Translations under genes and position numbers: made by a program
The notes under the pieces: generated by a model
What the model was told of the DNA's origin: nothing
The model's database searches: none
The model's input: only the letters and a program-made list of their open reading frames with translations
IMG/VR virus record: IMGVR_UViG_3300038427_000078
Length of the DNA stretch: 64,000 nt
Source of the DNA: a virus
Strand: one strand, 5' to 3'
Shown: positions 7,491-60,551 of the stretch, in pieces
How the letters are laid out: each line of letters opens with the position of its first letter
Numbering within the stretch: the first letter of the stretch is position 1

Positions 7491-7563
7491 GCCCTTGTAG
7501 CTCAGAGGATAGAGCATCGGTTTCCTAAACCGTGTGTCGCGGGTTCGATTCCCTCCGGTGCCA
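7491..7563 (+). tRNA. tRNA-Arg(CCU), degenerate acceptor and T stems (possibly pseudo)
   Basis: cggt-tt-CCT-aa-accg; acceptor gcccttg/cggtgcc has 2 mismatches. Confidence 0.6.
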
Positions 7564-7579
7564 TGGTATACTGTTGGGT

Positions 7580-7921
7580 ATGAGTGATCAAGACCTAACA
7601 GAGCAGCAAGTAGTGGCTGCGGAGGCCGGTGTCGGAGACAGCATACAGGCCATCGCGGACCGCGCAGTCAAGGCCGTCGAGGTACTGGACTTGAGCGAGG
7701 GCGATGTTCTCGTAGTCAAGCTCGGCATCGATGACATGGGTGACGGACTCCCACCGTGGATTCCGGGACCAGCGGAGCTAGAGCAGGTGTCAGATGCCTT
7801 GACCGCGACAGTGCCAGAGGGCGTACGGGTGCTAGTTCACCACCTGGGAATCAACTTCCAGATCGTACGCGGCCTCGACACCAGTAACCCGGTCGTAGTC
7901 GAATCGCTGCCAACAGAGTAA
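7580..7921 (+). CDS. small protein paralogous to an internal portal-protein domain
   Basis: KLGIDDMGDGLPPWIPGPAELE...RVLVHHLG matches portal KLGIMDMGDGLPPWLPGPEELE...RVMVHHFG. Confidence 0.85.
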   Translation: MSDQDLTEQQVVAAEAGVGDSIQAIADRAVKAVEVLDLSEGDVLVVKLGIDDMGDGLPPWIPGPAELEQVSDALTATVPEGVRVLVHHLGINFQIVRGLDTSNPVVVESLPTE

Positions 7922-7924
7922 CAC

Positions 7925-7999
7925 GCGGGAATAGCTCAGCCAGGTTAGAGCACTTCTCTGATAAGGAAGGGGTCAGAGGTTCAAATCCTCTTTTCCGCA
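7925..7999 (+). tRNA. tRNA-Ile(GAU)
   Basis: gcgggaa/tttccgc; ct-GAT-aa. Confidence 0.93.
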
Positions 8000-8191: not shown

Positions 8192-8524
8192 GTGGCATAC
8201 AAGGATCCTCAGAAGCAGAAAGAAGCACAGCATCGGTCATATCTGCGTAACAAAGAGATAATCCTCAGGCGCAGTTCTGATCGCATCAAAGAGCTTCGAC
8301 GCAAAGTGCGAGAGTACAAGGAGGAGCGTGGTTGTAGCGCGTGCGGGTACAACAAATACGGTGGGGCTATCGATGCTCATCACCCAAACGGCAAGGATAA
8401 CCAAGAACAGTGCATTGCCCGTTTGTGCAAACGGGCCTTTCCGTGGGAGACAATCCTTGCGGAGCTTGAGAAGTGCATTCTTCTCTGTTCCAACTGTCAT
8501 CGCGAGCACCATCGCGGTGAGTAG
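8192..8524 (+). CDS. HNH homing endonuclease
   Basis: CSACGY...IDAHH...ELEKCILLCSNCH. Confidence 0.88.
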   Translation: MAYKDPQKQKEAQHRSYLRNKEIILRRSSDRIKELRRKVREYKEERGCSACGYNKYGGAIDAHHPNGKDNQEQCIARLCKRAFPWETILAELEKCILLCSNCHREHHRGE

Positions 8525-16886: not shown

Positions 16887-17399
16887 ATGCCCCGTGATCG
16901 TATCAGACAAGAGTATTGCGCCAAGGGACATCTGCTTTCCGAGACAGCCCATGTCCGCGAGAACGGCAAGCGTAGCTGTAGCGTATGTCAGAAAGAACGA
17001 CGAGAGGAACTAAAGGAACGTCCCAAGATTTTCCTAGCAGAAAAGCGATGCGGTCGTTGCGAGGTTCCGAAGCCCCTGAACGAGTTCTATCGTGATGCTT
17101 CCAAGCCTGACGGCGTTGGTTATTACTGCAAGGTGTGTGAACGATGGATCAAACTGCTCTACAACTACGGTGTGACCGAGGAGGAATACAACGCCCTTTA
17201 CGCGAAACAAGGTGGGTGTTGCGCCATCTGTGGGCACTGTCCTGTCCCGCCAGAACCGTTCTTGGTAGTGGATCACGTTCACGATACCGAGGTCGTGCGC
17301 GGACTGCTATGCGGAACCTGCAACACAGGACTTGGGATGTTGAAAGAGAACCCCGAGATTGTCGAGAAGGCATTGGAGTATCTGTATGAAGCTGCTTGA
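16887..17399 (+). CDS. endonuclease VII-like homing endonuclease
   Basis: QGGCCAIC...VVDHVH...VRGLLCGTCNTGLG. Confidence 0.9.
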   Translation: MPRDRIRQEYCAKGHLLSETAHVRENGKRSCSVCQKERREELKERPKIFLAEKRCGRCEVPKPLNEFYRDASKPDGVGYYCKVCERWIKLLYNYGVTEEEYNALYAKQGGCCAICGHCPVPPEPFLVVDHVHDTEVVRGLLCGTCNTGLGMLKENPEIVEKALEYLYEAA

Positions 17400-19527
17400 C
17401 CAGGTGGAAAATTCCCTAGCGCCTAAGCACATCAGCATCATTGAGTTCGCTGAATCGTCAGACTACTGCGGCAAGACCCTCTATCCTCGGCAGGCCGTTC
17501 TTCTCAAGCTGCTCAACCTTGAGGAGCTAACAGGCGAGGAGGAGGACGTACTCGACTACTGGCTCAAGGGCGGGCGTAACGGTACCGAGATTGAGATTTC
17601 GCCCAATGTGCGCGAGCGTGTCGAATGGCTCCGCGAGAACGACTACCCGCACTTCCGCGAGGCTATCCTCGTCGGGGGTCGCCGTAGCTCCAAGGGATTC
17701 TGCACCGGCATCCAGATGGCGTACGTCATGTGGAACTGCTTGCAGTTGCAGGATCCTGGCGCGTACTACGGCATCGACCCGGAGAAGGAAATCTACTTCT
17801 CCTGTGTCGCCGGTTCCGAGGAACAGGCGAAGGAGTTCCAGTACGCCGACTTTTCGTCAACCGTGACGACGTGCAAGTCCTTCGACCCGTACATCATCAA
17901 GTCCCTAGAGACTGAGCTTCGCATCGCCACCGAGACTGACCTCCGTCGCATTCACACGGAGAAGGCCAAGGGGAACCGCATCCAGAAGGACATCGCTCGA
18001 CTTCGAGGCAAGGCTCTTGCCGCGAACGCCGGTACGCTGCGTGGATCAGCTACCATGGCTATCTGCATAGACGAGATGGCGCACATGATCCCCGGTGAGT
18101 CGAAGGCTGCCGCTGATCAGGTCTACAACGCCGCCGACCCGTCCCTCGACCAGTTCGGCGTAGACGGCATGATGTTCTGCAACTCAAGCCCGTACTCCAA
18201 GGTGGGTATGTTCTTCGACCGCTTCGAAGCGGCAAAGGTGAAGTTCGATCCTGACCGTCCGCTAGATGACGTTGTAGTCGTGGGTGAGGAGGGTGACATC
18301 GATATTCATGAACTCAATGGCGACCCGCGTATCTTCACCTTGCAGTTCGCGTCATGGTCGCTCTTCGAGGGTTACCAGAAGTCGAAGCACGCCAAGCGCC
18401 TCAAATGGACCCTCATGGCTTGCCCGGAGTGGGACGAGGACGAGAAGAACGAGGACGGCACTCCGTACTGGAACGACAAAGACATCACCGCGATCAAGGC
18501 CGCACGTTCCAAGGAGAAACAGAACCCGGAGACATACAAAGTCGAGCGTCGTGGCAAATTCGCAGAGGTCACCGAAGCGTACATCCCAGGTGGCGTCGTG
18601 GACAAAATGTTCGCGGGCCTCCCTATCGAATGGGTATCGAAGATGAACCCACGCACGCATGAGCAGGGACCGCTCGAACCTGTGTACGCGGAGTTGGCAA
18701 CGAATGACATGGGCCGCGTGGGTGAGTACGGCAGGCACAAGTTCCACATCGATCCGTCATCCACCACCGCTGGATTCGGCTTCGCCATCGCGCATCCGGA
18801 GAACATCGTCAACGGGGCCACAATGGTCGAGGAGGAACACGTTGTCTTCGATGTCATCCAGCGCTGGCAGCCGCAGCACTTCGCGGGCAAAGTCATCGAC
18901 TGGCACATCGTGCTCCCTGAACTCGTAGGCTTCGCGGAACTCTTCCGCCCGTTCGAGATTACCTTCGGCCAGCATGAGTCGCTACAGGCGATGCAGGAAC
19001 TCGATGAAAAACTCCGCCAGAAAAACTACGGCACGCGCATCTTCCAGTCCAAAGAGACAGCGGAGCTAAACTGGAAGCGTTGGGAGGTCACCAAGACCTC
19101 GATGTACTCTGGCTACGTCCACGCGCCGAAAGACACCGAGGATGCCAAGTTCGCTGCTCTTGAGTTGAAGTTCTTGCAGAAGCAGGCAGGCGCAGGGCGC
19201 TGGCCTCGCATCGACAAGCAGGAAATGGGTCCGGTCCAGACGAAGGATATGGCGGACTGTATAGCCGAGTGTGTGTCCACATTGATAGGCAATCAGATAG
19301 CGAACCGCACCCGTGACCGATTGACCCACTCGGCCCTATTGGGCGGCTCTCCGGGCGGCTACCAGATCGGCCTCGGCAGCAACCCAGCAGTGGGCGGAGC
19401 CGGTCCTCCGAACATCTCCGAGTATTACTCCCGCCGTGATGAGAAGATCGGCGGCGGAGGCAATCCGGCCCGAGGAGTGCTGGGAGGCGGCAGGAACCGC
19501 CGCAACCGGAACAAGGCAAGATGGTAA
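17386..19527 (+). CDS. terL: terminase large subunit
   Basis: Walker A VGGRRSSKG, Walker B ICIDEMAH, NSSP coupling motif, nuclease HIDPS...KDMADC. Confidence 0.88.
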   Translation: MKLLDQVENSLAPKHISIIEFAESSDYCGKTLYPRQAVLLKLLNLEELTGEEEDVLDYWLKGGRNGTEIEISPNVRERVEWLRENDYPHFREAILVGGRRSSKGFCTGIQMAYVMWNCLQLQDPGAYYGIDPEKEIYFSCVAGSEEQAKEFQYADFSSTVTTCKSFDPYIIKSLETELRIATETDLRRIHTEKAKGNRIQKDIARLRGKALAANAGTLRGSATMAICIDEMAHMIPGESKAAADQVYNAADPSLDQFGVDGMMFCNSSPYSKVGMFFDRFEAAKVKFDPDRPLDDVVVVGEEGDIDIHELNGDPRIFTLQFASWSLFEGYQKSKHAKRLKWTLMACPEWDEDEKNEDGTPYWNDKDITAIKAARSKEKQNPETYKVERRGKFAEVTEAYIPGGVVDKMFAGLPIEWVSKMNPRTHEQGPLEPVYAELATNDMGRVGEYGRHKFHIDPSSTTAGFGFAIAHPENIVNGATMVEEEHVVFDVIQRWQPQHFAGKVIDWHIVLPELVGFAELFRPFEITFGQHESLQAMQELDEKLRQKNYGTRIFQSKETAELNWKRWEVTKTSMYSGYVHAPKDTEDAKFAALELKFLQKQAGAGRWPRIDKQEMGPVQTKDMADCIAECVSTLIGNQIANRTRDRLTHSALLGGSPGGYQIGLGSNPAVGGAGPPNISEYYSRRDEKIGGGGNPARGVLGGGRNRRNRNKARW

Positions 19528-23407: not shown

Positions 23408-23451
23408 TAGGGAAGGCTCCAAGTGGGGTCAAATCAACGACGTAAGTATTG

Positions 23452-26172
23452 ATGGCTGACGAGAACCAACTACTACGGGCAGAGCTAGACAAACTCCGTA
23501 GACACGGGATGACTCTTCCGCGTCACAGCGGACGCGCTGCTCAGTCTTACGGCGAGGCAGTTCACACGAATCACGCGCTTCTACAGGCGGCAGGGCATGA
23601 CCTAGACCGCCTCGGAGTCAGGCTTGGGCGCAGCATCACGCAGGACAACTACGATTCGTCAGTCAAGAACATGCTGGGCGAGAACCAGGCCAAGATGCAG
23701 GCCATGCAGAGCAAACGCAGCATGAGCTATCGCAGCCAGGGAGCTAGCCCGCACCTGGGCGCAAGCCGTCGTGAGCACTACCGCATGTCAGCGGTTGACC
23801 ACCAATCCAACTTCGGTGGAAACCCCGGCGTCGGAACCTCGACAGGAGGCGATGCCTACAACGCCATCCCGCGTTTCTACGATCCGCTTGAGTATTGGGA
23901 CATCAGCGGCCTGCCGTGGAATGTTGCGGACGAAGGCCATCGTCACAAGCTCCACAAGTGGCTGCGCTTGTACTACGCCACCCACTACCTCGTCCCGATC
24001 CTGATCGACATCTTCACCCGCTTCCCGCTCGTCGGCATGGAGCTTGAGTGCAAGGATCCGAAGCTCAAAGAAGTGTACGAGTCGATCTTCCTCGACAACC
24101 TCAAATACGAAGACTTCCTCGTTGGCCTCGGTCGCGAGTATTGGGTCGTCGGAGAGGCGTTCCCTCTCGCGTCCTTTGATGAGGACTTGGGCGTGTGGGA
24201 GCATGAGGAGTTGATCAACCCCGAGGACATCGTGATCAACAACTTCCCGTTCCTCAACTCCAAGCAGTTGAAGATCGCTCCGCCCGACTACCTCAAGCGC
24301 ATCGCACAGACCAAGCTCCCGGCTCGCGAGTATTACCTCCTGCGCGAGAACTTCGAGGACTTGATCCCGTACTTGCTCAAGGGTGAACACATCCCGATCA
24401 GCCCGGTGATGATGCGCCACGTCGCCAACAAGATGAACAATTGGGACGACCACGGCACCCCGATTCTTCTACGCGGCATGCGAACCTTGCTCCATGAGGA
24501 AAAGCTCATGGCCTCGCAGGAAGCCATCGCTGAGCGTCTGTACTCGCCGTTGATCCTCGCCAAGCTAGGGATCATGGACATGGGCGACGGCCTCCCGCCG
24601 TGGCTCCCCGGCCCGGAAGAGCTTGAGTCCGTCCGTGACGACCTCGACATCGCGCTGTCATCTGACTTCCGCGTCATGGTCCACCACTTCGGCCTTGAGA
24701 TTTCCAACGTGTTCGGGCGCGAGCAGATGCCTCGCCTGGGCGACGACTTCGACCGCATCGAGCGCAGGCTCATGCAGGTGTTCGGCGTGAACCCGTCACT
24801 GCTCTCAGCGGGCAGCAACACACAGCCGTACGCCTCTAGCGCGCTACAAGCCGAGTTCATGAACCAGATCCTCCGCACGTTCCAGGGCATGCTCAAGGAG
24901 CACTACCGCGAGCGTGCTCTCGTCGTGGCTGAGGCGCAGGGCCACTACGACTACGAGACAAAGGGTGACACACGCATCCCGATTTGGGAAAAAGTCGCCA
25001 TCACCGACGAGGAGACAGGTGAGCGTCACATCGAGGAGGTACAGAAGCTCCTGGTCCCGGACCTCAAGTTCGCGACCTTCGACATGCGCGACCAGGCTAC
25101 CGAGCGTCAGTTCCTCATGGCCCTCCGTCAGATGGGCGTCCCGATCCCGAACGAGGATCTGCTCATCGGCATCGACTGGAACTACCGCGAAAAGGTCTTG
25201 CAGTACAACCGCGAGTTGAAGGAGCAGACCATCGCTCAGCAGCGCGCGAAGCTCGACACCTACATCGCTCTCGCCACGCAGGGACTCCCGATCCCGCTCG
25301 ACCTCAAGGCCGAGGTTGAGTCCGTGCTAGTCCACGGAGCAGGCGCAGGTGGGGGTATGCCCGAAGGCGGCGGTGGAGGCATGGCAGGAGCACAGCAGCA
25401 GAAACCAGGCGGCATGCCCGGATCAGTTGGTCCTGCCGGTGGCCCGCCTGAACTTGGACCTCCTGGCGGCGGTGGTGGAGGCATCAACATGCCGCCTCCG
25501 CCTCCTGGCCTTGGCTCAGGACCGGGCACCGCGCCTCCTGGCGGCGGAGCACCGGCAGCTAGCCCGATGGCTCCTGGTCCCGCAGGCACCGTCCCGCAGG
25601 TGAGCAACGAGCGTCGTCCTGGCCTGAAATACAACACGTCGAACCAGGGCCACCCGATCATCGGTGCTCGCGAGGGCAGCGACTTCGATCAGTTCATGGC
25701 CGACTACCCCGACCTGGGCCTCCCGTTCGTGGACTACGTGGCCGACAACACAGAGGACGAGCTAGACAAGATCGACCGTGGTACCCTGCTATCGTTGAGC
25801 AAGGCATGGCCGAAGAATGCAGCAGCATACCAGCACAAGGTTGCAGAGGAGGTCGCGGTATATCTCGCGAACACCCCGGATTCAGAGCCGGAGCCTGCTA
25901 AAGTAGAGCCACCAGTTGAGTTCACACTCAAGGCGAATCAGGAGCTACGGAAAGTAAAGGGTGAGCCAGATCGCATCATCGAGACACCTTCCAAGAAACG
26001 GATCAAGCACAAGGTCGCGACTGACAAGAAGTACACTGTCGTTGACCCGGTGGAAAAGCCGCTTCGTGTAACACCCGAGGAAGAAGCCAAGCTCCGCAAG
26101 GCGTATTTCAAGGCCAACAAGATACCACTACCAAAGGATGAGAATGAGTCAACCGAGCCAAAGTCCTCTTGA
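23452..26172 (+). CDS. portal protein with long Gly/Pro-rich C-terminal extension
   Basis: position near the terminase; HGTPILLR motif and VFGVNPSLL helix typical of portal folds. Confidence 0.75.
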   Translation: MADENQLLRAELDKLRRHGMTLPRHSGRAAQSYGEAVHTNHALLQAAGHDLDRLGVRLGRSITQDNYDSSVKNMLGENQAKMQAMQSKRSMSYRSQGASPHLGASRREHYRMSAVDHQSNFGGNPGVGTSTGGDAYNAIPRFYDPLEYWDISGLPWNVADEGHRHKLHKWLRLYYATHYLVPILIDIFTRFPLVGMELECKDPKLKEVYESIFLDNLKYEDFLVGLGREYWVVGEAFPLASFDEDLGVWEHEELINPEDIVINNFPFLNSKQLKIAPPDYLKRIAQTKLPAREYYLLRENFEDLIPYLLKGEHIPISPVMMRHVANKMNNWDDHGTPILLRGMRTLLHEEKLMASQEAIAERLYSPLILAKLGIMDMGDGLPPWLPGPEELESVRDDLDIALSSDFRVMVHHFGLEISNVFGREQMPRLGDDFDRIERRLMQVFGVNPSLLSAGSNTQPYASSALQAEFMNQILRTFQGMLKEHYRERALVVAEAQGHYDYETKGDTRIPIWEKVAITDEETGERHIEEVQKLLVPDLKFATFDMRDQATERQFLMALRQMGVPIPNEDLLIGIDWNYREKVLQYNRELKEQTIAQQRAKLDTYIALATQGLPIPLDLKAEVESVLVHGAGAGGGMPEGGGGGMAGAQQQKPGGMPGSVGPAGGPPELGPPGGGGGGINMPPPPPGLGSGPGTAPPGGGAPAASPMAPGPAGTVPQVSNERRPGLKYNTSNQGHPIIGAREGSDFDQFMADYPDLGLPFVDYVADNTEDELDKIDRGTLLSLSKAWPKNAAAYQHKVAEEVAVYLANTPDSEPEPAKVEPPVEFTLKANQELRKVKGEPDRIIETPSKKRIKHKVATDKKYTVVDPVEKPLRVTPEEEAKLRKAYFKANKIPLPKDENESTEPKSS

Positions 26173-27457
26173 CGACCCGAAAGTTCATAGGCTAGTCCGA
26201 GAGTACATCGCCGCAGGTAAGACCAACAGCAGCATCGTTTCATCACTCAGCACCCAAGGTGTTCTCACCACCAAGGACTCCATCCGGAGGTTCCGCAAGC
26301 GTAACGGCCTAGCCCCGCCGTCTAACTCCCCACTCCGACCGGGCGTGAAGGTAGAGAAGGGCACAGCAGAGGTCACGACTCCCCGCCAGGTCGGGGTCAA
26401 GCTCGATGACCCGGACACCATGCTTGAAGAACGTGGCCTTGATCCCGCCGAGTGGGACATCGAGGGCGCAGTCATCAACGAGTGGGATGGCCCGAGCCAA
26501 GAGGGTCCGGTCACGTACCACCAGGCGAAGCTCCGCCTCAAGCGCAACGTGGACTCGTTCATCTTCCCGGCCCGTAGCGATGGGTGGAAAGCGCCGCAGC
26601 GCAGTCTCCCGACAGAGGGATCACACCTTGTCGCCATCATAGGCGACCAGCAGGAGCCGTTCGCGGACGAGAACCTGCACTACCTACTCTGCGGCTGGCT
26701 CGAACAGAACCAGCCCGACGAGATTGTCAGCCTCGGTGACACTGTGGACTTTCCGGACATCAGCCGTCACAGGCTAGACCCGGAGAACGGAGCCACGGTC
26801 AACGAGTGTATCCAGACCGGCTACGACAACCTACGCGGCGTACGTCAGGCTGCCCCGAATGCGCGCATCCGCAAACTTGCAGGCAACCACGATGAGCGCA
26901 TGCGCAACATCCTGCTCGACAAGCCAGCAGTGCGGTCGCTCTACGGCGTCAAGCAGGCGGACACCCCGGACGAGGATGGCCCGCCCGTGCTCTCGATCCC
27001 TCACTTGCTTCGCTTGGACGAGTTGGGCATCGAGTACGTAGATCCTTCGGGTCCGTATGACATGGCGCAGATCAACCTCAGCGACCACTTGGCTGTGCGC
27101 CACGGCTGGATCGCCCGACAGGGATCAGGCGTGTCGGCTCTCGCTACGCTCGACTACCTCGGTTACTCCTGCATCGTGGGTCACACCCACCGTCAGTCAC
27201 TCATCTACAAAACTCGCCACGACATCGACGGCGGCACGACGACACTGACGGCTGCCGAGGCAGGCTGCCTCTGCAAAATCGATCAGAAGCCGTACAAGGG
27301 CAGGCAGTGGCCGAACTACACGGTCGCTCCCGACTGGCAACAGGGCTTCTCCACGGCGGTCGTTCACGCCGATGGCACGTTCAGGATCGAGAACGCAACC
27401 TACGTCAAGACGAAGGGCAAGGGCGTTCTTCTGTGGAGGGACGAACAGTACCGCTGA
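26144..27457 (+). CDS. calcineurin-like metallophosphoesterase with N-terminal HTH-like domain
   Basis: GD, LGDTVD, GNHD, RHG, GHTHR motifs. Confidence 0.85.
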   Translation: MSQPSQSPLDDPKVHRLVREYIAAGKTNSSIVSSLSTQGVLTTKDSIRRFRKRNGLAPPSNSPLRPGVKVEKGTAEVTTPRQVGVKLDDPDTMLEERGLDPAEWDIEGAVINEWDGPSQEGPVTYHQAKLRLKRNVDSFIFPARSDGWKAPQRSLPTEGSHLVAIIGDQQEPFADENLHYLLCGWLEQNQPDEIVSLGDTVDFPDISRHRLDPENGATVNECIQTGYDNLRGVRQAAPNARIRKLAGNHDERMRNILLDKPAVRSLYGVKQADTPDEDGPPVLSIPHLLRLDELGIEYVDPSGPYDMAQINLSDHLAVRHGWIARQGSGVSALATLDYLGYSCIVGHTHRQSLIYKTRHDIDGGTTTLTAAEAGCLCKIDQKPYKGRQWPNYTVAPDWQQGFSTAVVHADGTFRIENATYVKTKGKGVLLWRDEQYR

Positions 27458-42854: not shown

Positions 42855-43337
42855 ATGACCGCTATCCAAGACATCAAAACCACCCTTGAGAACCGTCTAG
42901 AGCTTCTAGACTATGCCTGCGAACAGGAGAGGCCCGGTACCGCTGCGTTCGATGAACTGTGCGGTCGCCACGAAGAGAGCAAGACCATGTTGGAGCTAGT
43001 CAACTACTTCGCCACGACTCGCGAGGACGTTGAAGATGAGGCTCCCGCCTACTGCGACTGCGACGAGTGCGCCTGCGAGTACGACGAGGACGACTTGGAC
43101 ATCAGTCTCACCATCGACGGCTCCGAGGTAGTCTCCCTGGACGAGTTCCAAGAGATTCGTGCCTACAACTACGAGCTTGCCATTCGCACTCTTGTCCAGC
43201 AGGAGGCGAAGCTGTCAACCTATTGGGCGCTCAAAGAGCTAGGTCTACCGATCCCGTACGACCTACGCAACGAGTGCTGGCCGCTCGACCCGGACAATCC
43301 TGACAACCAGCCTCGCGGCACGTCCTGGCAGCCCTAG
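42855..43337 (+). CDS. acidic protein carrying a copy of a portal C-terminal segment
   Basis: YNYELAIRTLVQQEAKLSTYWALKELGLPIPYDL vs portal YNRELKEQTIAQQRAKLDTYIALATQGLPIPLDL. Confidence 0.8.
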   Translation: MTAIQDIKTTLENRLELLDYACEQERPGTAAFDELCGRHEESKTMLELVNYFATTREDVEDEAPAYCDCDECACEYDEDDLDISLTIDGSEVVSLDEFQEIRAYNYELAIRTLVQQEAKLSTYWALKELGLPIPYDLRNECWPLDPDNPDNQPRGTSWQP

Positions 43338-51115: not shown

Positions 51116-51136
51116 TCACCTGATATACTGCCTAGC

Positions 51137-53209
51137 ATGATCCCGACCAAAGACGAATCCAAGACGCTCAGCAACATCGACGGACAGAAGATCGCCATGG
51201 GCATCGACCAGAAGTCACTGCCCCACCTGATGAACCTTCTGAGCAAACCGTACAACGACCCCGAAGCTGCGGTGGTCCGCGAGTACAGCACCAACGCGCT
51301 CGACTCCCACGTCGAGGCAGGACAGACGCGACCCATCGAGGTCACGACCCCCACCGCGCTCGACCCCAAGTTCATCGTGCGTGACTTCGGCGTCGGCCTC
51401 AACCGCGTGGACATCGAAGAGACTTTCTCGCAGTACGGCGCGAGCACGAAGCGCGAAACGAACGAGCAGGTTGGCTCGCTTGGCATCGGCTCCAAGAGCG
51501 CATTCGCCTACACGTCACAGTTTACGGTCGTTGGGATCAAGGACGGAATCAAGACGATCATCGACGTGGCGAAGGACGACGAGGGCGGAGGCGTGATGAC
51601 CGTGGTGGACGAGATACCGACCGACGAGGGCAACGGCGTCACGATCATGGTCCCTGTGCAGCGTCACAACGACTTCGAGGACAAGGCCAAGGCTCTGTTC
51701 CGCTACTGGCAGCCCGGAACCGTGCTGCTCAACGGCAAGGAACCCGAGCACATCGAGGGCTTGCCTCTCACCGACAGCATCATGCTGGTGGACAAGGGCC
51801 ACTACCGCGACCAGTCAGTCGTGGTCATGGGCAACGTGCCCTATGAGATTCCGCCCGAGATTGAGCCGCTGAAAGGCGCACTCAATAACCGCCGCGTGGT
51901 CGCGACCGTGCCTATCGGTGACGTGAGCTTCACACCGGGGCGCGAGAGCCTTGAACTCAGCAACCGCACGAAGGCCCGCCTTGAGACACTGAACGAGGAA
52001 GCGTCTACTGCCCTCGCCGTGTCGATCCAGAGTGACATCGACGCCGCCCCGGACAAGGCTGACGCGCTGCGCAAAGCGACTGACTGGCGGCGTACGTTCG
52101 ACCGTCAGTACCTTCACCCAACCGCAGTGAAAGCGCTGGACGACCTGTCTTACCAGGGCAAGCCTGTTCCCAAGTCACTGCAACTCCCCAAGAACAAGAA
52201 CGAAAAGGGTGAAGAAACGCGGCCCAAGCTGAAAATAAGTGACAGGTTCGCGTCGAAGCTCAGTGACACGACGACACAGCAGTACATCGAAGCTGTCACA
52301 GCTTTGCAGTCGATCCTTGTCACCGGCTACACCGCCGACAGCTTCACCCCTTCACACAAGAAGAAACTGGTCGCTCACTGCGACGAGCACGACATCGATG
52401 GCAACATGTACGTCATGCTCAATGGCACGATGCCCGAGGACGTAGAGTGGTTCGACGTGCCGATTATCAAGTGGGAGGACGTGAAGCTAATCAAGCTCGA
52501 CCGTACCCAGGTCAACGTTGAAGGCTCGCGTAAGACCCTTCTCGGCTCCTATGACGTGCATGACGGTGGATGCTTCACCATCGAGAAGAAAGCCGACGAG
52601 CTTGAAGGCGACCTCTACTACTACACGCCTCAGACCTACGAGTGCTACGGCTACGACAGCAAACGCAAGCAGGAGCAGGCCGAGCGTGCGCAGGCGGAAC
52701 TCTTCGCCAAGTACCGCCCCGGTGCGATGCTGATCCGGCTTGGCCTCAACCGCATCGCCAAGTTCAAGCGCGATTTCCCCAACGGGGCAGAAGCCAAACC
52801 CGAGCTTGTCAAGATGCACGCCGAGCTTGTCAAGACTCTCGGCACCGATGGCTTGCAGGCTCTCGCACTCCGCGAAGCTGGTGGCACATCGAAGCTCGAA
52901 GAGCTTGACGCTGATCTTGTCGAAGATCCTGCGCTCAAGCGGGCCATCGAACTCGCGAACACCGATGTCAGCGCCATCGCGGAAGCTCTCCGGGCCTTCC
53001 AGAATCAGCACTTGAACCTCACGGTCAAGAACCCGCTGGCGAACGTCAAGGCGTACGACCTTGACGAGCACTACCCTCTTGCCGCGCATGTCAAAGCCTA
53101 CCACTACAACCGTCGTGGGAAGGACTCCGAAAAGCTGCGCTGGCACATGATTATTTATCTAAATGCTGCGTACGAAACAGAACAGGAGCTTGAAAATGCG
53201 AATCAGTGA
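51137..53209 (+). CDS. rIIA-like protein (GHKL/Hsp90-like ATPase)
   Basis: VREYSTNALDSH, VRDFGVG, YGASTK, GSLGIGSKS. Confidence 0.85.
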   Translation: MIPTKDESKTLSNIDGQKIAMGIDQKSLPHLMNLLSKPYNDPEAAVVREYSTNALDSHVEAGQTRPIEVTTPTALDPKFIVRDFGVGLNRVDIEETFSQYGASTKRETNEQVGSLGIGSKSAFAYTSQFTVVGIKDGIKTIIDVAKDDEGGGVMTVVDEIPTDEGNGVTIMVPVQRHNDFEDKAKALFRYWQPGTVLLNGKEPEHIEGLPLTDSIMLVDKGHYRDQSVVVMGNVPYEIPPEIEPLKGALNNRRVVATVPIGDVSFTPGRESLELSNRTKARLETLNEEASTALAVSIQSDIDAAPDKADALRKATDWRRTFDRQYLHPTAVKALDDLSYQGKPVPKSLQLPKNKNEKGEETRPKLKISDRFASKLSDTTTQQYIEAVTALQSILVTGYTADSFTPSHKKKLVAHCDEHDIDGNMYVMLNGTMPEDVEWFDVPIIKWEDVKLIKLDRTQVNVEGSRKTLLGSYDVHDGGCFTIEKKADELEGDLYYYTPQTYECYGYDSKRKQEQAERAQAELFAKYRPGAMLIRLGLNRIAKFKRDFPNGAEAKPELVKMHAELVKTLGTDGLQALALREAGGTSKLEELDADLVEDPALKRAIELANTDVSAIAEALRAFQNQHLNLTVKNPLANVKAYDLDEHYPLAAHVKAYHYNRRGKDSEKLRWHMIIYLNAAYETEQELENANQ

Positions 53210-59514: not shown

Positions 59515-59675
59515 TGCCATCGAGTCCTCCATCGTTGTAAACTGGCAGTCACCGAGAGGACCACTCCCGCCAGAGTGAATCACACAGCAGCCCGACATGG
59601 CGGTGTCGGGTTGCCTCCTTGCAAGATTCGTTGCAGCTATTGCAATACGCTATCCCCTGTGCTATCCTTACGGAT

Positions 59676-60551
59676 ATGAGGCACAACGCAGAATGGTTCG
59701 TGAAGCGGGACGCGGCTTGTGGCCTCGCCCGGTGGAACGGCAAGGTCAACCCCACCGCACTCGCGAAGCTCTGCGCTGAAATGGGAGTGAAGCTCCCGGT
59801 GAAGGTGAAAGGCAGCGCAGGCATCACCCGCATGGGTACGCACCGCTTGCGAGTCAACGAGCAGGCCACCCTCCGGGCCTTCCGCGAAGGCGCTGACAAG
59901 TCGGTGCAGGAGCATCGCATCACGGTCAGCAGCTACGCTTGCGTCTACCAGGCGAACAGCACTCTGAGGCATGAGCTTATGCACGCCGTGCAAGTCGAGC
60001 GTGCGATGGACGAAGGCAGGACGCCGAAGGACGAGAGCAAAGAGTACACGCGCCTCAACCGGGCTTACGGCTACAAACGCAACCCGCGTGAGGTCGAGGC
60101 CCGCGAAGCGTCCACGAAGTACACCACAGACGCCATCACACAGACGCCGGTGCTCACTGAGCGCCAGCACGATTCAGCGCGTGCTCACTTTCCCGCCGCG
60201 TGGTTCGGCAACCTGCGCTCGCACATGCGCCGCGAAGCTGAGCAGAGTGTCATTCCGCCGATCCGTGAGCACTACCAGGCGCTACTCGCAGCCGAGCACG
60301 TTGACCTCGGCGGATTGTTTGACGACGAGGGCGTCGAGATTGGTCAGATCACTGACATAACTATTGACATGACGAACATCGTGGAGTCTCGCAGCGAGCC
60401 GGTGAACACACCCACCGAGCGCGAGGCCGTTGAAGCGAAGCTCCGAGCATGGCGCGACGAGCGAGGCATGTCACAGCCCACAAGCGGGGAGTGGAACGCG
60501 ATGGTGGAGCGCCAGCTTGCAAAGACTCGTACAAATGTCCAGTCTGCTTGA
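59676..60551 (+). CDS. HExxH metallopeptidase-like protein
   Basis: TLRHELMHAVQ...NPREVEAR. Confidence 0.65.
   Translation: MRHNAEWFVKRDAACGLARWNGKVNPTALAKLCAEMGVKLPVKVKGSAGITRMGTHRLRVNEQATLRAFREGADKSVQEHRITVSSYACVYQANSTLRHELMHAVQVERAMDEGRTPKDESKEYTRLNRAYGYKRNPREVEAREASTKYTTDAITQTPVLTERQHDSARAHFPAAWFGNLRSHMRREAEQSVIPPIREHYQALLAAEHVDLGGLFDDEGVEIGQITDITIDMTNIVESRSEPVNTPTEREAVEAKLRAWRDERGMSQPTSGEWNAMVERQLAKTRTNVQSA

Follow-up and report, generated by a model that had tools for sequence, protein, structure and literature searches.

The clip is the externally exposed base of the portal of tailed phages; the large terminase docks there, and the adaptor at a later stage (PMC10359639). In SPbeta YonE the clip occupies residues 270-325, a unit of 56 amino acids with three strands and one helix set between the two stem helices (PMC12847820), and SpbK's N-terminal domain attaches to the clip in the YonE dodecamer (PMC12847820). 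Portals are also sensed by Avs4 and Avs11, and the tail tube and further core proteins by other Avs families (10.64898/2026.01.04.697583). Bacterial immune receptors recognise much of the tailed-phage core proteome, the portal being an established target, and the open question addressed here is how phages escape the sensing of proteins that can barely change. To our knowledge, the phage mimics described so far copy DNA or host factors and not pieces of the phage's own virion. A full-text literature search gave no description of free-standing portal-clip proteins, portal-fragment decoys or portal-fragment sensor inhibitors.

We analysed a 64,000-nt stretch of viral DNA (the window), which is part of a large, uncultured, cluster-C-like phage; no near DNA match to it was found among 50,697 cultured phage records. 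The window encodes, apart from its portal, a small protein that carries a copy of the portal's predicted clip. We call such proteins mini-clips, and consider this one very probably a functional clip-derived accessory protein.

The mini-clip gene and its portal counterpart

The mini-clip gene lies on the plus strand at 7580..7921 and encodes 113 amino acids in an open frame, from ATG at 7580 to TAA at 7919-7921. An earlier sequence-only reading had noted it in a tRNA island at a distance from the portal gene; it is found between two tRNAs there, 16.6 kb upstream of the portal segment that it matches. The tRNA on its 5′ side (7491..7563, +) scores 44.2 bits with Rfam RF00005 and has no ARAGORN call. 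The anticodon loop of this tRNA, ttCCTaa, reads by eye as Arg-CCT, and a T-T mismatch interrupts the anticodon stem; a tRNA-Arg(cct) is likewise present in the island of a related locus, L001. On the 3′ side a tRNA-Ile(GAT), called by both ARAGORN and Rfam (7925..7999, +), begins 3 nt past the stop codon, and an HNH endonuclease gene is found at 8192..8524 (+; phrog_2255, E=3e-20). That endonuclease is of the same family as the gene directly 3′ of the mini-clip gene in L001 (E=2e-29 for the L001 copy), and the two HNH proteins are 36% identical. The window holds 29 tRNA/tmRNA genes and its tRNA island several HNH genes; no defence or anti-defence genes were identified near the mini-clip gene.

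The portal gene (23449..26172, +; 907 aa, ATG at 23452) matches phrog_2833 at E=5.7e-149. In an AlphaFold model of its residues 125-640, the 26 best structural matches are all solved portals (Z 5.3-8.6), SPbeta YonE coming first, so that the portal identity proposed earlier for 23452-26172 holds. Its product is 57-73% identical to portals on IMG/VR contigs of 144-170 kb. Past the crown is a Gly/Pro-rich low-complexity linker (residues about 628-715; 25330-25600), then a C-terminal extension of ~190 aa; PDB matches to both parts were spurious only. Two portal homologues of 1,025 and 1,125 aa (L019 1-3075 and L021 3-3377) have an insertion, probably an intein, that starts C-FDGDTRVL right after the conserved motif FPL(I/V)G(I/M)(D/E)LE. 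Nearby, an endonuclease VII gene (16887-17399) overlaps the start of the large terminase gene (17359-19527). A metallophosphoesterase gene (26138-27457) lies directly 3′ of the portal gene, and most related contigs with DNA downstream of the portal have there an ORF of similar size with a closely similar C-terminal sequence.

By BLASTP, mini-clip residues 43-98 align without gaps to portal residues 368-423, with 30 identities and 37 positives in 56 positions (E=2e-18); an earlier hand count over part of this segment, 28 of 45, was slightly conservative. The aligned DNA is 7706-7873 in the mini-clip gene, a core of 56 aa with the motif KLGIxDMGDGLPPWIPGPxELE...RVxVHHxG (7706..7873, +), and 24550-24717 in the portal gene. 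Over the 56 codons of this core, 34 first, 43 second and 21 third positions are identical, and the same codon is kept at 12 of the 30 identical residues. The synonymous divergence claimed earlier is thus present, and since third positions are scrambled, the similarity has been kept at the protein level. The profile phrog_2833 matches the mini-clip protein at profile positions 332-387 of 874 only (E=8e-9) and the window's portal at positions 73-590. Longer alignments are obtained with mini-clips from other loci: those of L028, L035 and L001 align over 72-94 aa to portal residues about 337-430, taking in the whole stem helix. The parent region in the portal, stem helix plus clip, can accordingly be placed at 24457..24738 (+), with the 56-aa core inside it. 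In a profile scan of all six frames the clip module occurs in two places only in the window, the mini-clip ORF and the portal; the ORF is the top match of the family profile described below (116 bits, E=3e-35).

The portal model runs, in its own numbering, through N-terminal wing helices, a helix of 34 residues (215-248), 56 residues of poor prediction (249-305), two helices (306-320 and 337-373), a beta-sheet (378-416) and crown helices (425-504). The core common to mini-clip and portal is model residues 244-299. Because this is the canonical wing-stem-clip-stem-wing-crown order, the core should correspond to the clip together with the last part of the first stem helix, and it matches the YonE clip 270-325 in size and make-up. 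We infer from fold topology and published portals, at a model pLDDT of 27-44 in this stretch, that the mini-clip copies the end of the stem helix and the clip; it is without the full wing-stem-clip-stem-wing-crown architecture of portals. An AF2 model of the mini-clip protein (mean pLDDT 61.5) has helices at 22-34 and 64-77 and strands at 43-48, 83-88 and 92-96. After the N-terminal helix, it therefore consists of three strands and one helix, resembling the YonE clip.

Structure and feature searches with the isolated unit gave little. Foldseek of the mini-clip model against the PDB had no match at E<=0.001. A wide VIA search, for which an isolated clip modelled at pLDDT 61.5 is a poor query, returned generic two-layer alpha/beta folds only (Z<=6.3), among them Rid, chorismate mutase and the FtsZ C-terminal domain. 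The best score in an ESM Atlas feature search was 0.77, under the useful range. PDB sequence searches with the portal and the family profile gave only low-complexity or chance matches, none below E=1 for the family profile. A complex prediction of the portal core with the mini-clip family scored 0.00 in a single run without controls, which weighs neither for nor against an interaction.

A second portal fragment is encoded by the window at 42855..43337 (+; 160 aa). Residues 99-140 of its product match portal residues 581-622, comprising the last crown helix and a GLPIPxDL motif, with 22 of 42 identities (BLASTP, E=4e-10). An acidic Cys-rich region precedes the portal-like part. The gene has a host-type promoter upstream, TTGACA-N17-TAAGGT-N6-ATG; no stand-alone homologue of this crown fragment was found in five related records. 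The crown motif is fused to a mini-clip in other members of the family, N-terminally in P0077, P0025, P0023 and P0052 and C-terminally in P0064, and fusion in both orders argues that the clip and crown pieces act together.

The mini-clip family

We found four stand-alone homologues of the mini-clip protein by word-based search (98-104 aa, 71-79% identity), and 106 matches by exhaustive HMMER search of 1.84 billion cluster representatives. About 80 of the latter are divergent small proteins (63-220 aa) with matches to profile positions about 13-97; another 20 or so are portals (600-1,700 aa), whose matches are confined to positions 30-84. Conversely, all 34 portals tested are matched by the family profile, over positions 29-83 and at 40-62 bits, and 44 of 82 family members match the portal family phrog_2833 while none match other head families. 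Apart from one stray Pfam match, no small-protein PHROG or Pfam family was found for the 82 members, and all those sampled are metagenomic 'hypothetical proteins'. One candidate of 977 aa, P0028, was rejected as a false positive with fn3 repeats, and three short matches (P0034, P0050 and P0104) that resemble truncated portal gene calls were excluded.

In tblastn against the 50,697 cultured phage records the window's mini-clip matched only portal genes, in 215 phages, and no stand-alone copy; two divergent members, P0027 and P0019, had no match there. The portals of cluster C align to mini-clip residues 6-101, that of Mycobacterium phage Tonenili at 31% identity. IMG/VR scans with alignments A2 and A5 produced pattern matches and no confirmed relatives.

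The family motif, GD-x-L-h-V-x-h-G...(M)GDGxPPWIP...EL...VPxGVxVhV(T/H)HxG, is present in the window's protein. In the family alignment P62 does not vary, and conservation reaches at least 90% at G41, G49, W60 and H88. Mini-clips alone, not portals, have the GD motif ahead of strand 1 and a further strand at the C terminus, whereas the loop motif MGDGxPPW(I/L)P and the helix after it are conserved in both. Two variants were noted among the matches. P0053, P0057 and P0073 (112-126 aa) form another type of small protein derived from the portal, in which a portal-like DYRVLVHHFGV strand is kept and a conserved AKxRMAERLG helix is added at the C terminus. A 577-aa protein in L038 (8001-9734; P0110) has two tandem mini-clip-like modules, at residues 373-424 and 442-489, and matched no known family outside them.

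A maximum-likelihood tree was built from a 60-column core of 82 mini-clips and 34 portals; it bears on the split between the two groups, not on inner topology. Portals fall on one side of a single branch and mini-clips on the other (SH-aLRT 98, length 0.66), a separation matched by none of 500 label shuffles. A single portal clade with a support of 98 implies that the split is old. Portal clips are nearly invariant and the mini-clips, on long branches, far more divergent, as is expected if the two groups parted once, long ago, and the mini-clips then diverged fast. The stand-alone copy of a portal segment described in the sequence-only reading is therefore homologous to the portal as proposed; tree and codon data argue against its being a recent copy of the window's own portal, and it belongs instead to an old, diverse family.

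The near-invariance of portal clips bears on one possible activity, dominant-negative poisoning, in which the mini-clip would keep clip-clip contacts and cap or disrupt the portal rings of competitors in superinfection interference. To act as a dominant negative is a classical property of truncated paralogues of oligomeric proteins. The YonE model suggests that all four portal subdomains, the clip included, take part in inter-subunit contacts (PMC12847820). However, since portal clips in the group are nearly alike, self and rival portals could hardly be distinguished, and the phage's own portal, 54% identical in the core, would be threatened too. We regard portal poisoning as very unlikely.

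Selection on the mini-clip was assessed by Nei-Gojobori comparison of the window with L001, L002 and L035, which gave dN/dS of 0.13-0.24; these are pairwise ratios among five loci and approximate, because dS is saturated at 1.2-1.9. They agree with the protein-level selection suggested before. The opposite view would be of a non-functional hitch-hiker, a portal fragment decaying within an HNH/tRNA cassette. At L001 2240-3065 the 5′ half of a tRNA-Ile, interrupted near the anticodon stem, is succeeded by a promoter, the mini-clip gene, the HNH gene and a complete tRNA-Ile(gat). The arrangement resembles a mobile cassette, with the mini-clip gene as cargo, by which a tRNA gene was split and replaced, and the HNH genes of the window's own island fit the same picture. 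Against decay, the frame is intact in every copy at the above dN/dS and saturated dS, some 80 divergent clusters exist, the promoter layout is conserved (see below), and the mini-clips share a GD motif and C-terminal strand that portals do not have. Given selection and family size, the hitch-hiker reading is practically excluded, and we leave it hardly any weight.

Distribution is sporadic: among four related phage genomes that are at least 90% complete, one has a stand-alone copy (G003, L028), from which it follows that the mini-clip gene is dispensable.

Promoters and genomic contexts

An extended -10 promoter-like element, TGGTATACT, lies at 7564..7572 (+), ending 7 nt 5′ of the mini-clip ATG in a leaderless arrangement. 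The TATACT start signal described earlier is at 7567-7572, and is extended by a TG at 7564-7565. Five divergent mini-clip loci, otherwise unrelated in upstream context, share this layout of TGnTATnnT and 6-7 nt before ATG: TGG-TATACT-N7 in the window, TGC-TATACT-N6 in L001, TGC-TATAAT-N7 in L002, TGT-TATAAT-N7 in L028, and TGC-TATCAT-N7 in L052, there ahead of the second Met of P0012. The layout fits leaderless initiation from an extended -10 element. The window has three copies of TGNTATMMT-N7-ATG (0.00 expected); the two besides that of the mini-clip gene are at 51121-51139 (+), before a 690-aa ORF (51137-53209), and at 59660-59678 (+), before an in-frame ATG (59676) within ORF 59619-60551. 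These two copies suggest that the phage has a class of leaderless extended -10 promoters. The portal start is unlike that of the mini-clip, with GTAA-N4-TG before ATG 23452, a putative late-type signal. Judging from these signals, the mini-clip gene is probably transcribed early by the host polymerase from its own promoter. More distant mini-clip genes have Shine-Dalgarno sites within operons.

In the contexts examined, a mini-clip gene never adjoins portal or terminase. The tRNA island context is shared by the window and L001. Elsewhere the gene stands in a long array of small ORFs (L035 and L036), isolated between tail genes (L028 and L052), or adjoining genes for dNMP kinase or for ATP-grasp, ThiF and Thg1 proteins.

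The location of the gene and its promoter bear on a second proposal, that the mini-clip competes for a packaging partner, binding the large terminase (17359-19527) or the head-completion adaptor and thereby tuning the timing of its own phage's packaging or keeping these proteins from a relative that co-infects. Terminase and, after it, the adaptor dock at the clip (PMC10359639), and retention of the MGDGxPPW(I/L)P loop and helix in mini-clips and portals alike would be expected if both meet one conserved partner. However, the mini-clip is unnecessary for packaging in three of the four complete relatives, which have no copy; its host-type early promoter and its early or replication contexts contrast with late terminase expression; and mini-clips outpace portal clips in evolution, which is odd for the mimic of a conserved interface. 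A packaging partner therefore seems unlikely to us.

Some contexts point instead to replication genes. L037 and L049, from two uncultured phages, are collinear over DnaE, RecA, mini-clip, a 116-aa and a 272-aa protein, RuvC and Sigma70_r4, and in both the start of the mini-clip gene overlaps the recA stop. Past Sigma70_r4 the collinear block runs on to an RF-1-like gene and a SNF2 helicase. In L002 the order is EndoVII, a Cas4-like exonuclease and mini-clip, with Sigma70_r4 further on, and P0030 is directly 3′ of a Sigma70_r4-like gene. A small protein consisting of Sigma70_r4 only thus recurs near mini-clips (L037, L049, L002 and the P0030 contig).

The translational coupling to recA in two phages is a hint of involvement in DNA metabolism and not in counter-defence. 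The clip-derived domain might have been recruited to replication or recombination, working with RecA, a resolvase or the small sigma-like factor, possibly as a soluble stand-in for the portal that would link concatemer processing with packaging. The RecA, EndoVII/Cas4-like and Sigma70_r4 neighborhoods all speak for such recruitment, and an association of T4 endonuclease VII with the portal gp20 has been reported. On the other hand, in the window and four other loci the mini-clip gene is alone, has its own promoter and lies far from such genes; within the L037/L049 block it is the least conserved gene (48% against 50-72%), and its variable architecture and sporadic distribution tell the same way. 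We think a replication role quite unlikely.

Proposed role and comparison with known systems

We prefer to see the mini-clip gene as an accessory (moron-like) gene from an old family of clip mini-proteins, acting as an early clip mimic with an immune sensor as likeliest partner, and we hold this combined reading tentatively, at slightly less than even confidence. A clip mimic is favoured because the gene, which is mobile, evolves fast, can be dispensed with and is probably expressed early, looks like one for counter-defence or competition. Counter-defence or competition also accounts better than regulation of the phage's own packaging for the sporadic distribution, the host-type early promoter, the faster evolution and the early or replication placement. 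Calling the protein a portal mimic, as the sequence-only reading did, is reasonable since terminase, adaptor and at least two immune sensors contact the clip/stem segment that it appears to copy (PMC10359639, PMC12847820). Of that proposal, a stand-alone copy of this segment, under selection and with a promoter of its own, is borne out; mimicry would be its most likely mode of action, and the three activities put forward there, titration of host sensors, delayed packaging and poisoning of rival portals, are candidate roles.

The mimic would work as follows. Host polymerase would transcribe the gene from its leaderless extended -10 promoter ahead of the late portal gene, and the product would present the exposed clip surface of the portal as a small soluble protein. 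It would then compete with the portal for a binder of that surface; competition for a clip ligand is the candidate mechanism towards which we lean, by a little. The likeliest such binder would be an immune sensor of the host with its docking site on the portal clip or stem, SpbK-like or Avs4/Avs11-like. As a monovalent clip, the mini-clip would occupy the sensor and would not supply the dodecameric platform, or the full monomer surface, required for activation. An immune sensor as the ligand is, taken by itself, possible but doubtful. A free clip could in principle trigger a clip sensor and not block it, and a 56-aa piece may be insufficient for the extended interfaces of the known Avs sensors.

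More broadly, large phages may carry an undescribed class of counter-defence genes, early free-standing copies of the exposed virion pieces that sensors recognise (in this phage the portal clip, the last crown helix and possibly the tail tube), which would serve as monovalent decoys and blunt SpbK-, Avs4- or Avs11-like immunity before structural proteins accumulate. We offer this as speculation, and rather expect it to prove wrong; were it true, the mini-clip family, at some 80 clusters, would be the largest known branch of virion-fragment decoy genes. Soluble, fast-evolving copies of the clip under seemingly early host-type promoters are a concrete candidate answer to how the sensing of nearly immutable proteins is escaped, and one that is cheap to test. 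Were the partner instead the terminase, the adaptor or an enzyme of recombination, a new regulator of DNA packaging would come to light. In both cases a structural origin and a testable hypothesis are gained for a family of considerable size whose proteins are now labelled 'hypothetical'.

Several described systems can be set beside the mini-clip. Like the phrog_2833 portals of cluster-C-like actinophages, it has a clip unit of about 56 aa, predicted to form three strands and one helix, and carries the motif MGDGxPPW(I/L)P...EL...VHHxG. Unlike a portal it stands alone, has no wing, second stem helix, tunnel loop or crown, and cannot form a DNA channel. Its N-terminal part, with the GD motif, is its own, and one strand is added at the C terminus; the gene differs from that of the portal in promoter type and in genome location, and the protein evolves much faster. 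SpbK, with YonE in Bacillus subtilis, and the STAND NTPases Avs4 and Avs11 recognise the portal parts that the mini-clip copies; these are host proteins, and the mini-clip would be their ligand or competitor and not a member of their families. MicroProteins are small single-domain paralogues that titrate the partners of a larger protein. Like them, and like the mimic or decoy proteins of anti-defence, the mini-clip is small, derives from one interaction module of a larger protein, is accessory and fast-evolving, and is probably early. From its sequence and genomic setting it appears to be a known domain redeployed as a stand-alone accessory protein, for which a decoy function is plausible.
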